31,603 nucleotides of DNA from a virus. Taxonomy: Duplodnaviria > Heunggongvirae > Uroviricota > Caudoviricetes. The stretch lies in the IMG/VR virus record IMGVR_UViG_2740892231_000003, one strand, 5' to 3'. Position 1 is the first letter of the stretch; every line of letters starts with the position of its first letter. Position numbers: made by a program. Shown piece by piece: positions 9,001-15,000 of this stretch.

Positions 9001-12000
9001 TCTGCTGGCGTCCGGTGAAGACCTGGCATCACAGGGCTGGCGCTATTATCACAAACCGGCGAGCGGAGACAGTGTTAATAAAAACATCGCTGAGGCTGTG
9101 GTCAGTGATGAGGGTGCCACCGGTGGTAAGGCCCTGCAACTGAACAAACCGGAAAGCCACATCTGGTTTCTGGAGCATGATGCCGCCGGGCANNNNNNNN
9201 NNGGCTACGGGAGGTAAGGCCCTGCAACTGAACAAACCGGAAAGCCACATCTGGTTTCTGGAGCATGATGCCGCCGGGCAGGGGGCAGAGTTGCTGAAGA
9301 AAGGCGGACGTGTGAGCGTGCGGTTTAAGGTGCCGGGCGCACTGGTGCCGAATCAGTTTGCCCTGGGTATTTACTGGCAGTTGTCGTCCCTGCCGGAGGG
9401 AGTGACGCTGTCAGAGGAAGGCAACGACATGCTGATGTCCTTCTTCCTGCAGACGGATGCGACGAACCTGAACGCGATGTACCACAAGAAGCAGAATGCG
9501 AAGCTGGATACGTTCGGGGTCTTTGATAACGGATGGCACACACTGGCTTTTGAGTTTGCCGGAAACAACAGCATTCAGGTGACGCCGGTACTGGATGAGA
9601 AACGGGGTACGCCGTTCACACTGGTGAAATCTCCGGCATCAGGGGCGGCGGACAAACTGCAACTGACAGGCATATCAAAGGCGGCGACATATACGCTGCT
9701 GATTGACAGTGTGAAGGTGGAAGTGAACAACGCGGACGGCGCGGCATGATAAAAAAACCGCCAGTCGCGGGAATATCGCTGGCGGTAAGTACCCATGTAC
9801 CTTTGTAATGAATGGATGTTTTTACATCGGTTATTTTTTAATGAATTGCGTTTCTGTTGTCAACATACCAGGCGGGAAGTTTTCAGGACAAAAAATCCAC
9901 CAGTAAGCAAGGGAGGTGCAGTTGCGTGCTTCTGGTGGAAATGGTACGGCTATGAGGTTTTATTGTTATGCATGCCATAATTTTTCTACACAAAAGCAAT
10001 TCTGAATGTCAACACGTTTTATAAGGAATTGTTGTGCACACAGAGTAAATGCACGGGGCTGTCAGTGTAACACTGGCGGCCTTTTTCATGTTGTGAGCTT
10101 CCGGATTGCGGGAGACGGGGTATGTACCAGATGGAAAAAATCACANNNNNNNNNNCCGCCAGAACCTTGAGTCGCGTCTTGATGCAGAAGTGGATGCCAT
10201 TCTGGATGAACTGCTGGGCGCACCGGCAGCTCCGGAGCCGGAAGGCATCGCGGGTGAGGGGAGTGCTTCAGATGGCGGTGAACCCACACCTGACAGCGAC
10301 ATGATGATGTAAGCATGCGCAAGGGACCATCGGTGTGTGCCGGTGGTCTTTATATTGTTGTGAGCTTCCGGATTGCGGGAGACGGGGTATGTACCAGATG
10401 GAAAAAATCACAACAGGTGTGTCATACACCACGTCAGCGGTGGGAACGGGCTACTGGTTCCTGCAGTTGCTGGACAGGGTTTCCCCGTCTCAGTGGGCGG
10501 CAATAGGCGTGCTGGGGAGTCTGCTGTTTGGTCTGCTGACATATCTGACTAACCTGTATTTCAAAATTAAAGAAGACCGGCGTAAGGCGGCCCGGGAAGA
10601 GTAAGCTGATGAGCAGAAAATTCCGCTATGGTTTATCGGCTGCCGTTCTGGCGCTGATTGCCGCAGGGGCTTCTGCGCCTGAAATCCTCGACCAGTTTCT
10701 GGATGAAAAGGAAGGCAACCACACCACGGCATACCGTGATGGTGCGGGTATCTGGACCATCTGCCGAGGTGCCATCATGGTGGATGGTAAGCCTGTGATT
10801 CCTAGCATGAAGCTGTCGAAGGAAAAATGCGACCAGGTTAACGCCATTGAGCGTGATAAGGCGCTGGCATGGGTGGAGAAAAACATCAAAGTGCCACTGA
10901 CTGAACCCCAGAAAGCGGGTATTGCGTCATTCTGTCCTTACAACATTGGCCCCGGTAAGTGTTTCAGCTCAACGTTTTACCGGAAACTGAACGCCGGAGA
11001 CCGTAAAGGCGCATGTGCTGAAATTCGTCGCTGGATATATGACGGTGGTCAGGACTGCCGTATTCGTTCAAACAACTGTTACGGTCAGGTATCCCGTCGT
11101 GACCAGGAGAGCGCGCTGGCGTGCTGGGAAATCGACAGATAAGCAGAATATTTTGCTGAAAAATGAGGTTTGCTCACATGGACGTATAACACGAAATCCT
11201 GCAAATTGGCAAAATGTAAGTGAATAAAGTCAAAACAGTTGTTTAACACTCAGGCACCGTAATGGTGCCTTTGTCATTTCTGCGCATCTCACGCGCATCT
11301 CACAACACAGAACCTTTCAGGATGACCCTTGAGGATACCGGTTTGGCTGTCGGTGCCTTTCTGTGGGCTGGATTCCTGTGAGACAAGGTTCATCACTAAA
11401 AGGAAATAACCGATGAATATGATGACCGTGCCGTTTCACGGCAACTCTCTTTATGTAGTTAACCATAATGGCGAGCCATACGTTCCCATGAAACCTGTCG
11501 TTGCGGGGATGGGGCTGGCCTGGCAATCACAGTTGGCTAAGTTAAGACAGCGTTTTGCGTCAACTATAACGGAAATCGTTATGGTTGCTGAGGATGGGAA
11601 ACAACGCAATATGGTGTCCATGCCACTTCGAAAACTTGCCGGCTGGCTACAAACTATTAATCCCAACAAAGTAAAACCCGAAATCCGCGATAAGGTCATC
11701 CGGTATCAGGAAGAGTGCGACGATGTTCTTTACGAGTACTGGACGAAGGGTTTTGTCGTTAATCCCCGTAAAATGAGCGTGATGGAAGAACTCAACCAGG
11801 CTTGTGCTGACATGAAACGGGATAAAAAACATTGCCAGTGTGTTTGCTACCGGGCTGAATGAGTGGAAACAGGTTAAAGCCGCGCATGTATCAAAAATCC
11901 GTACGCTGGTAAATGAAGCGAATATGCTGATTGATTTTGTCCTGGCTGATACAGGCAAAGGGAAAATAACAAAGGCGGATTGATGGGGTGGCTAATGATA

Positions 12001-15000
12001 TCAGATAAACTCATAACGCTGGTGAAGAGCCTCTGTGTACTTGTCGGCATTTCATTTTCACTAATGCTGGTTGCTCTTTTTCTTTCCATGGCCTGGATGG
12101 CGTTGACTTCGGCAGGGCTGGTGGGGTGAGCATAAACCGAATGCTTTCCGCGTTTACCGTTATTCTGCTGGTGGTCTGTGGTGCGCTTANNNNNNNNNNG
12201 TTGGCAGCAAGCGGGGTTTTGTGTTTCTGACCTTGGATAAGGCAAGGGAGAACATGGAAAAGTATAAACGAATTCTGTTGAGGTTGACTATGAAAAACGG
12301 CCTTGAACTGAAAGCGCCAGTAACTGATGACATCAGCAGAGCACTGGCTTTTGCTATTAAGTGGGTGGCGGTCGGTATATCGCTGTGTCTCCGATGCTGT
12401 ATGGGCTGGCAAAACTGGTCATTGCGTTGAAATCGTGAAGGGAGGATTAAACATGTCAGACAAACTCATAATGCTGGCGAAGATCCTCTGTGTAATCATC
12501 GGCATTTCATTTTCACTAATGCTGGTTGCTCTTTTTCTTTCCATGGGCTGGATGATGTTATCTTCGTCGGGGATGCTGGGGTGAGCATAAACCGAATGCT
12601 TTCCGCGTTTACCGTTATTCTGCTGGTGGTCTGTGGTGCGCTTAGTCTGGGGCTGAATCATTACCGCGATAACGCCATAACCTACAAAGCGCAGCGCGAT
12701 AAAAAAGTCAGTGAGCTGGAGCTGGCAAATGCAACCATTACTGATATGCAGCAGCGCCAGCGTGATGTTGCTGCACTTGATGCCAGATACTCGAGGGAAT
12801 TAGCCGATGCGAGAGCTGAAAATGAAACTCTGCGTGCTGATGTTGCCGCTGGTCGTAAGCGCCTGCGGATCAACGCCACCTGCCCCGGTACCGTGCGTGA
12901 AGCCACCGGCACCTCCGGCGTGGGCAATGATGCCGCCGTCGAACTCTCTCCGGTTGCTGGACGAAACGTTCTCGGTATCAGAGACGGAATCATCAGCGAC
13001 CAGGCAGCATTGAGAATGCTTCAGGAATATATCCGCACTCAGTGTATTAACTAGTATTTTTGTTATTCGGAGAATGCATGAAGAAATTACTGGTAACCGT
13101 AAAGCCTTTTCAGGGAACAATTCCGTTCCGTATTTTGCAGCGTGGTCGTGTTCTTGTTGAAGGTTCGTTCAGTGGTAAATGTACGCAATTACACTCCCGG
13201 ACCTTTCAGGTGAATGCCACGAATGAAGAGCTAACCGTTGAGTATACGATGAATGCCGCTAAATGCCGCATGGTATCCGCTGCATTACAGCCAGTGTGTT
13301 GAGCGACCTTATTATCCATGGCGCGGTATTGTCGCCGTATTCCCGTATTAACAGAGACCGCAGCCCGACAGGGAGACTCCTCTGCGCGAGTGTGCGGGGA
13401 TAATCAAAAACGATNNNNNNNNNNAATCAGAGAGGACCGGCGTAAGGCGGCGCGGGGAGAGTAAGCTGATGAGCAGGAAATTCCGCTATGGTTTATCAGC
13501 GGNNNNNNNNNNTCATGCGCGGTATTGTCGCCGTATTCCTGCATTAACAGAGACCGCAGCCCGACCGGGAGACTCCTCTGCGCGAGTGTGCGGGGATAAT
13601 CAAAAACGATACACACCGGGGTTTACCGCGTTAACGGAGCGCGGCGTTGTCCCCTCATGGTCGCTGGTCCGGTGCGATGGTGGAAGAAACCGGACGATGT
13701 GTTACCTCGCAAGCTCTGTTATGTCATGTGTCTGATTTGTGATTTAAGTCGGATAATTGTCGTTGCCATTAAGCAGAGGATTGATGGCCGACAGGGTGGC
13801 ATTGTTAGAATAAGACTTATTCTTATCTGTGCCGGGAATGAAAATGAAAATGAAAAGAAATCTTCCGTTAATTATTTTGTTGTCTTCTCTGGTTATGGGC
13901 TGTACGCAACNNNNNNNNNNACCGACAGGGTGGCATTGTTAGAATAAGACTTATTCTTATCTGTGCCGGGAATGAAAATGAAAAGAAATCTTCCGTTAAT
14001 TATTTTGTTGTCTTCTCTGGTTATGGGCTGTACGCAACATAAAACAGATATGCCCCGACAGTTGGTTAAGGCATTACCACAATATCCGGCCTATGCAGCG
14101 GCAAATTATATAAAGGGACGGGTTGATGTGAAGTTTGATATTGGTGCTGATGGTACTGTCACCCGAATTGAGTTTATCCGTTCAGAGCCGCACCATCTGT
14201 TTGATGAGCAGGTTGTAAAGGCGATGGCAAAATGGCGATTTGAGAAGGACAGGCCGCGTAAAGGCGTGAAGAAAACGTTTATCTTTAGTCCTTCTGCACC
14301 CTGATTATTTCATCAGAAATTAATTATCACTCTGTTGTTATTCTGTACATCCCGGCAGGGTAAGTCTTGTTCCGTCGGATATGAAGATGAAATATTGTTG
14401 GAGGACAGTGGGTAGCTGCTCCTGTAACCGAACGTTCATTTCTCGTTATTTGTCATGCTGGCCGGGCGCAGGTGCGTTGCATCTGTTGCCAGCCTTCTCC
14501 GGCAGGCTTCAATAACCCACGCTGAAAAGTTACCGGACCCTTTATGCTCAAGGGCGATGTTGATCTGTTCAATCATGTGATTGGGGAAACGGATATTGCG
14601 GGTTGTGGTTCTGCGGGTCCGGTTTTTCGATGACATATTTATTTCCTTTACTGATTGCCTTATGACGGGGATTTTACATGGCTGAGCTTCGTACACTCCA
14701 GAGCAGAATCAAAACACTGAATACCCGACGGGTGAATATTCTGAAGGGTGAACAGCGTCGTGTCAGTGGCAGTGCACGTGTTTCCCTCAAGCGTCATATC
14801 TGGCTCAGGGATGCCGGGCAGTGCTGTCTCTGTGGTCGTGTGGTTGACCTCTGTGACAGTGAACTCGATCACCGAATTGCACTTCAGTTCGGTGGTGGTA
14901 ATGAGGAGACGAATCTCTGGACGCTCTGTACCGAATGCCATCGACAAAAGTCTGCTCGTGAAGCGGCGGGTGGTATGCCGGACCCGACGCTGCCGGAGGT

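Follow-up and report, generated by a model that had tools for sequence, protein, structure and literature searches.

Three copies of a small hydrophobic ORF

We analyzed a 31,603-nucleotide (nt) stretch of Caudoviricetes virus DNA (IMG/VR record IMGVR_UViG_2740892231_000003; the whole stretch is referred to as the window) for a family of short open reading frames (ORFs) that encode hydrophobic peptides and lie close to Rz, the spanin gene of phage lysis cassettes. An earlier note on this DNA had described three ORFs of 43–44 amino acids (aa), and both their coordinates and their sequences were confirmed:

11995–12129, plus strand: peptide gene copy 1, 44 aa from the ATG at 11995, MISDKLITLVKSLCVLVGISFSLMLVALFLSMAWMALTSAGLVG; phrog_4906, E 8.5e-26
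12453–12584, plus strand: peptide gene copy 2, 43 aa, MSDKLIMLAKILCVIIGISFSLMLVALFLSMGWMMLSSSGMLG; phrog_4906, E 3.3e-20
17109–17240, plus strand: peptide gene copy 3, 43 aa, MSDKLITLAKILCVIVGISFSLMLVAIFLFLPWMMLSSSGMLG; phrog_4906, E 4.2e-21

Blastn of the window itself together with 245 related loci matched the peptide ORF at these three places of the window only. Since the copies differ pairwise at just 8–16 of 126 compared nucleotides, they are homologous and not chance ORFs. The earlier note had assigned all three to one lysis cassette, which the layout of the window contradicts. The window holds 16 spacers of exactly ten N (N10) and is, therefore, a scaffold of short contigs in which adjacency of features across spacers is not to be trusted. 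Copies 1, 2, and 3 fall on separate contig pieces (10156–12189, 12200–13414, and 16256–28658, respectively) and hence represent paralogous loci of different prophage lysis cassettes. The N10 sites span window positions 5270–31526 (for example, 10146, 12190, 13415, 13503, 13911, 15575, and 16246).

A Shine-Dalgarno (SD)-like motif precedes the ORF in each of these three arrangements: GGGGTGG in copy 1, which follows the antirepressor gene ant; AAGGGGT, 4 nt upstream, in copy 3, which follows a 47-aa ORF; and in copy 2, which follows a 60-aa ORF, the strong site AAGGGAGGA 6 nt before the ATG, in keeping with the good ribosome-binding site that the earlier note had seen there. Copy 1 has an alternative upstream ATG at 11983, which overlaps the ant stop and yields a 48-aa form (MGWLMISDK...). 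This longer form is the one annotated as ORF50 in phage BP-4795 (a 147-nt coding sequence; translation checked), and the coding sequence of ECs_5707 in Escherichia coli O157 Sakai has the same 147-nt length. Copy 1 is itself a recombinant allele with a BP-4795-type 5′ half and the common 3′ half.

At the other end, copies 1 and 2 close with GGGGTGA, within which the GTG start of Rz overlaps the TGA stop (GTGA). For copy 2, this GTG lies at 12581; read from it, Rz begins MSINRMLSAF..., and its "NR" lines up with the MNR... start of other Rz proteins. The claim that the peptide stop abuts Rz thus holds for copies 1 and 2 and fails for copy 3, whose stop at 17240 lies 182 nt before the Rz ATG at 17423 and 140 nt before the first ATG of that ORF at 17381, the remnant of another small ORF separating the two.

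Evidence that the ORF is a gene

To assess coding status, we used the 245 fetched related loci and the window, which gave 248 homologous places and 20 distinct DNA alleles. A frame of exactly 43 codons is open and free of indels in all 248, so that the stop codons and frameshifts in relatives about which the earlier note had worried were not seen. Pooled Nei–Gojobori dN/dS was 0.38 in frame for the 20 alleles (0.42 with two alleles added) vs. 0.77 and 1.26 in the other two frames, a pattern unlike that of noncoding sequence, which the note had raised as its second ground for doubt. By subregion, dN/dS was 0.28 for codons 2–10, 0.40 for codons 11–26, and 0.47 for codons 27–43; deep allele pairs gave 0.29–0.5 (one-sided Fisher p down to 0.002), and codons S2, L12, L36, and G40 vary only synonymously.

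The three window copies taken by themselves look different. Nonsynonymous changes account for 7 of 8, 12 of 16, and 13 of 16 of their pairwise differences (dN/dS 1.0–2.3), the replacements being conservative (hydrophobic for hydrophobic). Conservation through synonymous and conservative changes, as originally described, is therefore half right: the conservative replacements are there, the synonymous excess is absent among the window copies, and a purifying signal appears only in deeper comparisons.

In an alignment of six copies and their flanks, each from a different genomic context, homology ran from the SD motif and start to the stop codon, and the flanks were unrelated. As judged from this alignment, a homology block that matches the ORF ends is the pattern expected of a gene module in mosaic lambdoid genomes. 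Frameshifted variants are rare in the protein collection and form small clusters. Given the frame-specific dN/dS, the wobble-only codons, the ORF-bounded homology, and the SD motif in each window context, coding status is well supported, and the ORF is very probably a real membrane-protein gene.

A small RNA (sRNA) or other RNA element was considered and rejected: Rfam at gathering thresholds found no family at the peptide loci. Its only matches, elsewhere in the window, were three copies of the STnc100 sRNA family (RF02076) on the plus strand at 1941–2152, 2214–2427, and 6666–6878, with scores of 139–198 bits (gathering score, 47). AgvB and AsxR, anti-sRNAs of prophages, are located at the moron site 3′ of pR′/stx, outside the R–Rz gap (PMC4104026).

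Predicted product

The 43-residue product has a grand average of hydropathy of ∼1.7 and is charged only at D3, K4, and K10. Its best 19-residue windows have Kyte–Doolittle means of 2.6–2.9, with residues 11–29 at 2.9, and AlphaFold2 with a 20-sequence alignment predicted one continuous helix over residues 2–38 (mean predicted local distance difference test score 87). Across 50 protein variants, residues 12–26 (LCVIVGISFSLMLVA), S30, W33, L36, G40, and G43 are nearly invariant. Positions 7, 8, 11, 27, 31, 32, 34, 35, 37, 39, and 42 vary, with R, K, or Q at position 34, and the C-terminal half of the peptide is variable. Helical periodicity of conservation reached only a weak maximum at 90–110°, and because it is weak, we did not use it as evidence of a packing face. 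The positive-inside rule suggests an N-in/C-out topology in which the N terminus (D3, K4, K10) would be cytoplasmic, the membrane would be crossed by a helix of about residues 11–33 with W33 at the periplasmic interface, and a short, uncharged, Ser/Gly-rich tail would follow.

By-eye likeness to the N-terminal transmembrane domain (TMD) of lambda Rz led us to consider the peptide as a relic of that domain. The idea gained no support from hhalign against an alignment of seven Rz proteins (probability 0.2%), and there was no match to PF03245. The hidden Markov models of PADLOC defense proteins likewise gave no family at E ≤ 1.

Prior annotation and distribution

The peptide family is already annotated and catalogued in RefSeq, in PHROGs, and in the literature, which the earlier note had missed; it is known but uncharacterized. 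All three copies match PHROG 4906 over their full length (profile positions 6/7–49 of 49; E 3e-20 to 9e-26). Several complete genomes of Shiga toxin-producing E. coli (STEC) match the copy-3 region at 100% identity, and the ORF is WP_001280931.1 in them. Copy 2 is WP_001280924.1, found at the same position in a complete genome, and a 100% identical copy is annotated as "hypothetical protein," as is the copy-3 ORF. The same gene is known as ORF50 in BP-4795 (CAD88851.1), ORF53 in phage P8983, and ECs_5707 in the Sakai prophage Sp5, each time between ant and Rz, and its position is conserved too in PhiR12_2 and in complete genomes. The older reference record of phage 933W leaves the 153-nt gap between ant and Rz without annotation, and many other phage records omit the ORF likewise. 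Because every entry reads "hypothetical protein" or "unknown function," membership in PHROG 4906 is silent on function.

Translation of the Sakai copy has been addressed by ribosome profiling (RIBOseq): Hücker et al. 2017 (PMC5597208) include it, as XECs191, in their set of 465 intergenic ORFs above threshold [reads per kilobase per million (RPKM) ≥ 1, coverage ≥ 0.5, ribosome coverage value (RCV) ≥ 0.25]. In LB, XECs191 had a transcriptome value of 30.0, a translatome RPKM of 12.6, an RCV of 0.43, and a coverage of 0.55, and the same study predicted an inner-membrane protein with one transmembrane (TM) helix.

The 132-nt ORF occurs in 1,722 of 5,426 complete E. coli genomes, at 4,624 places and up to 11 times per genome; in the sampled rows of these matches, every one is annotated "hypothetical protein." Tblastn found the peptide at full length in all 276 matching phage records (63–100% identity), nearly all of them Shiga toxin (Stx)-converting phages. 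A homologous Rz is present in 730 phage records, vs. 276 with the peptide. In lambda and in Salmonella and Klebsiella phages, the Rz match falls on annotations of both Rz and the endolysin, which leave no gap between them. Because the peptide is absent from lambda and numerous further phages that have a homologous Rz, it is accessory to Rz function.

A word-indexed search of 5.8 billion proteins returned 89 clusters; every source name given was an E. coli "hypothetical protein," and some clusters were nameless. A pattern scan of 185,579 GTDB species-representative genomes found no confirmed relative, a literature search for ECs_5707 gave no match, and "The Cryptic Bacterial Microproteome" does not mention small ORFs of lysis cassettes. 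The family is E. coli-restricted, and PHROG 4906, Sakai ECs_5707, BP-4795 ORF50, and XECs191 are one and the same.

Position in lysis cassettes

Rz lies downstream within ∼216 nt in ∼240 of 245 related loci, which bears out conservation of position next to Rz. Three classes of context account for most of these loci. In ∼80 of 245, ant lies upstream, and Rz overlaps the peptide stop or starts within 8 nt. In ∼75, a phrog_1115-type 60-aa membrane ORF lies upstream, and Rz overlaps. In ∼85, the upstream neighbor is a phrog_6632-type membrane ORF of 31–47 aa, and Rz is ∼180–215 nt downstream. The description as a single-pass hydrophobic peptide between the endolysin (with or without ant) and Rz, therefore, stands for ∼240 of 245 loci, with one predicted helix. 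Among the loci for which enough upstream sequence was available, 169 of 181 have both an S21-type holin and the R lysozyme, in agreement with the ∼99% of Stx phages reported to have cassettes of a pinholin and a signal-anchor-release (SAR) endolysin (PMC8136144).

A divergent 44-aa member, P0093, occupies a phiP27-like cassette that runs from Phage_holin_8 and Phage_holin_3_7 through a GH108 endolysin, ANT, and a phrog_6632-like ORF to the peptide and then a small lipoprotein. The GH108 endolysin of this cassette is without a hydrophobic N-terminal (SAR-type) segment. At every locus seen, the peptide is inside the lysis cassette, and in the case of P0093, too, it comes after the endolysin. The small predicted lipoprotein (lipobox LLVGC; L32 of phiP27, phrog_7528, "unknown function") sits where Rz/Rz1 would be and may, with or without the small membrane ORFs, take the place of a spanin. 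The stretch concerned is 3861–4322 in the phiP27-like case (locus L247, a Logan ERR3901468 contig) and 2453–2608 in phiP27 (locus L252).

No sigma-70-like promoter was found on the plus strand upstream of the peptide, and site counts were not above shuffled expectation, with the limit that consensus scans may miss weak promoters. No conserved antisense RNA was found at the peptide loci. The simplest reading is that the gene lacks a dedicated promoter and is transcribed as part of the Q-antiterminated late transcript.

Within the window, the peptide genes are accompanied by the following features:

10389–10604, plus strand: 71-aa class II holin of the S21 (pinholin) type, copy-1 cassette; its positional counterpart in RefSeq is a "class II holin family protein," and related loci match PF04971
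10609–11142, plus strand: lysozyme R (177 aa) of the copy-1 cassette; Gly/Ala-rich hydrophobic N terminus, SAR type; the paralogue at 16285–16818 matches PF00959
11413–11983, plus strand: ant (P22_AR_N antirepressor); PF10547, E 6e-46; frameshifted into 149-aa and 47-aa ORFs
12126–12189, plus strand: 5′ end of Rz after copy 1, truncated where the N10 spacer begins (12190)
12254–12437, plus strand: phrog_1115-type 60-aa small membrane ORF immediately 5′ of copy 2; frameshifted allele (PGAP "frameshifted")
12581–13054, plus strand: Rz i-spanin of the copy-2 cassette; GTG start; PF03245, E 2e-39; embedded Rz1 lipoprotein at 12807–13013
16285–16818, plus strand: lysozyme R (177 aa) of the copy-3 cassette; PF00959, E 8e-25
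16908–16939, plus strand: strong terminator-like hairpin (12 bp) and T-run (TTTTGTGTTT) after R; its 3′ half recurs at 12200–12226, opening that contig piece
16963–17106, plus strand: phrog_6632-type small membrane ORF, 47 aa from a GTG or 31 aa from the ATG at 17011; E 6.7e-14; ends 2 nt before copy 3
17243–17350, plus strand: phrog_1115-type ORF, frameshifted 3′ remnant between copy 3 and Rz (PGAP "frameshifted")
17423–17884, plus strand: Rz i-spanin of the copy-3 cassette; ORF opens at 17381; PF03245, E 8e-48; embedded Rz1 at 17643–17828

The gene order is, on the first piece, the S21-type holin, R lysozyme, frameshifted ant, the peptide, and an Rz that the gap truncates to its 5′ end; on the second, the frameshifted 60-aa ORF, the peptide, and Rz/Rz1; and on the third, R, the terminator-like hairpin, the 47-aa ORF, the peptide, the ORF remnant, and Rz/Rz1. 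The SAR/pinholin assignment follows that made for Stx phages (PMC8136144). The hairpin lies inside a presumed single late operon and would, therefore, stop transcription not modified by Q from reaching the small ORFs and Rz.

Several neighbors deserve separate mention. The ant frameshift is near an A-run at about 11826–11831, and BP-4795, 933W, and Sakai Sp5 have ant as an uninterrupted 189-aa gene; the split gene of the window could be a genuine pseudogene or a homopolymer error of the draft assembly. The phrog_6632 (31–47 aa) and phrog_1115 (60 aa) ORFs are two more families of small membrane ORFs sharing the endolysin–Rz gap, both uncharacterized. The phrog_1115-type ORF is frameshifted in the window and in complete RefSeq genomes and is intact in phage PhiR12_2. 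The Rz that follows copy 2 diverges in its C-terminal third (12900–13054 compared with 17730–17884; …GNDAAVELSPVAGRNVLGIRDGIISDQAALRMLQEY…), the C terminus of the embedded Rz1 differs accordingly, and by this comparison the gene looks like a mosaic spanin allele. Lambdoid lysis regions are represented in the window by several paralogous fragments: R lysozyme lies at 10609–11142, 15614–16147, and 16285–16818, and truncated pieces lie at about 13318–13735.

A candidate accessory of the lysis cassette and its alternatives

The reading that we tentatively prefer is of a late gene for a single-pass inner-membrane microprotein, a dispensable accessory that would most likely modulate a membrane step of lysis through TM–TM packing. 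The gene acts like a small mobile module: its slot lies after the endolysin, behind ant or a small membrane ORF and before Rz, in the pinholin/SAR-endolysin cassettes of Stx and other lambdoid prophages. It would be carried on the Q-antiterminated late transcript and translated from its own SD site, and in two of the three arrangements translation may be coupled into Rz through the overlapping GTGA or a 7-nt gap. The TM core (LCVIVGISFSLMLVA) might then pack on the pinholin, the SAR domain, the TMD of Rz, or a host membrane protein and so tune the timing or efficiency of lysis. A bolder version of this proposal is that the peptide, alone or together with the phrog_6632 and phrog_1115 ORFs, represents a previously unrecognized class of single-pass lysis regulators of E. 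coli Stx and lambdoid phages that binds TM segments of the pinholin, the SAR endolysin, or Rz; this we consider unlikely.

A number of observations weigh against a role in lysis. No experiment and no homology ties the peptide to lysis: there was no Pfam or NCBIfam match beyond subthreshold noise and no PDB match, hhalign gave a probability of 0.1% against the S21-type holin of the cassette and no relation to the neighboring phrog_6632 ORF, and an exhaustive search of 1.84 billion representative proteins with a HMMER profile yielded 29 matches, all from the same tight family or its fragments. The phiP27-like cassette of P0093 has no Rz homologue; since it combines holins of canonical type with GH108, the peptide is tied neither to Rz nor to the pinholin/SAR system. 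The association with Rz could be due to nothing more than proximity in a mosaic genome. Close allele pairs, the window copies among them, give dN/dS of at least 1, which points to moderate selection on the amino acid sequence, and the divergent allele P0096 exceeds 1 against its nearest relatives. The RIBOseq signal of XECs191 is barely above threshold and comes from uninduced cultures and a multicopy sequence (PMC5597208).

Comparison with known small membrane proteins sets limits on what such a modulator could be. Antiholins (S107 of lambda, S21-71 of phage 21, RI of T4, LydB of P1, and LysA of P2) are small, usually membrane-associated, nonessential proteins that tune lysis timing; S107 and S21-71 arise from alternative starts of the holin gene, RI works through its periplasmic domain, and LysA contains several TMDs. 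The peptide resembles them as a candidate member of the class of small, nonessential membrane proteins of lysis cassettes, but it is a separate gene after the endolysin with only ∼10 predicted periplasmic residues and no similarity to the holin of its cassette. The pinholin S21-68 (class II holin, PF04971) is likewise a small inner-membrane late protein of the same cassettes; it has two TMDs (one of SAR type) and a charged C terminus, whereas the peptide has one helix and no C-terminal charge, and its cassette already encodes an S21-type holin. With one helix in place of two TMDs and the negligible hhalign probability given above, the antiholin- or pinholin-like role suggested in the earlier note found no specific link. 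Releasin, gp25 of phage Mu, is an accessory membrane protein needed for release of the SAR endolysin; it is a lead only, the shared feature being an accessory small membrane protein in a SAR-endolysin cassette. A SAR-specific role is argued against by the occurrence of the peptide with a GH108 endolysin that has no SAR-type segment.

The peptide could instead be cargo of the "moron" type, a membrane microprotein unrelated to lysis that rides in a recombination-tolerant slot and acts, for example, in superinfection exclusion or on a host inner-membrane protein. We rate this as rather unlikely, although much of the distribution would fit it: the same slot takes other insertions (ant and the phrog_6632 and phrog_1115 ORFs), the module travels as a discrete unit with boundaries at the ORF ends, it turns up in a nonhomologous phiP27-like cassette without Rz, it is widespread in lysogens (1,722 of 5,426 complete E. 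coli genomes, up to 11 copies each), and some RNA and RIBOseq signal was present in uninduced Sakai cultures (PMC5597208). However, that low signal may stem from spontaneously induced cells, the PADLOC models gave no match, and the peptide stays inside the lysis cassette at every locus seen. Expression in the lysogen has, moreover, no visible route because no coding-strand sigma-70-like promoter was found upstream and the terminator-like hairpin follows R.

Translation of the ORF could also serve mainly to feed ribosomes to the Rz start and to carry the Rz SD site, the peptide having little or no function and the frame needing only to be open and harmlessly hydrophobic. Such a leader would account for the GTGA overlap in copies 1 and 2, the 7-nt distance to the Rz ATG in BP-4795, the SD-like conserved 3′ end GGNCTGNTGGGGTGA, the dN/dS of ∼1–2.3 among close alleles, and the variable C-terminal half. 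It is decidedly unlikely in view of the copy-3 arrangement (∼85 of 245 loci), where the ORF is intact despite the ∼180–215 nt to Rz, and of the divergent member, which has no Rz downstream. The near-invariance of residues 12–26 in 50 protein variants and dN/dS of 0.3–0.5 in deep comparisons (0.28–0.40 over codons 2–26) speak for the peptide itself, and a homologous Rz is expressed in lambda and in many further phages that have no leader of this kind.

Type I toxins (Hok/Gef, TisB, Ldr, Ibs) and the lysis proteins E of phiX174 and L of MS2 are inner-membrane peptides of 20–90 aa with a single helix. The peptide shares the size, the extreme hydrophobicity, and the single helix, a resemblance only, and a membrane-depolarizing toxin, whether type I-like or an extra lysis trigger, is very improbable. 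A type I toxin comes with a dedicated promoter and an antisense RNA, and a single-gene lysis protein is the only one that its small ssRNA or ssDNA phage encodes for lysis; neither fits an Rz-coupled gene within a complete holin/endolysin/spanin cassette. At the peptide loci, no own promoter, conserved antisense RNA, or Rfam family was found, and the toxin role offered by the earlier note gained no specific link. A minus-strand ORF overlaps copies 1 and 2 and is absent at copy 3, the gene sits within the late operon, and up to 11 intact copies are tolerated per genome. Most improbable of all is that the ORF is no gene and its frame is open by chance, the conserved stretch upstream of Rz being an untranslated spacer or an RNA element. 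Such an origin would agree with the shortness of the ORF, the high nucleotide conservation of its central 60 nt, the absence of a synonymous excess among the window copies alone, and the missing annotation in the 933W reference and many other phage records. It is opposed by the frame open at 248 of 248 places and full length in 276 of 276 phage matches with no indels, the frame-specific dN/dS, the module boundaries at ORF ends with an SD motif in each of the three window contexts, the absence of an Rfam match, and the listing as translated in the RIBOseq study (PMC5597208).

Significance for Stx phages

As a discovery, the peptide is modest: the ORF was already annotated, in PHROGs, and in a RIBOseq list, and nothing points to an unusual mechanism. 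Comparisons of Stx-phage lysis cassettes tend to overlook it because the canonical 933W record omits the ORF. Nevertheless, about a third of complete E. coli genomes (1,722 of 5,426) and most sequenced Stx phages carry this gene in the cassette that controls lysis. Lysis of STEC releases Shiga toxin, and an uncharacterized membrane protein at this place is a reasonable target of study. If the peptide does regulate lysis, it would set the timing or completeness of lysis and hence, the timing of Shiga toxin release.

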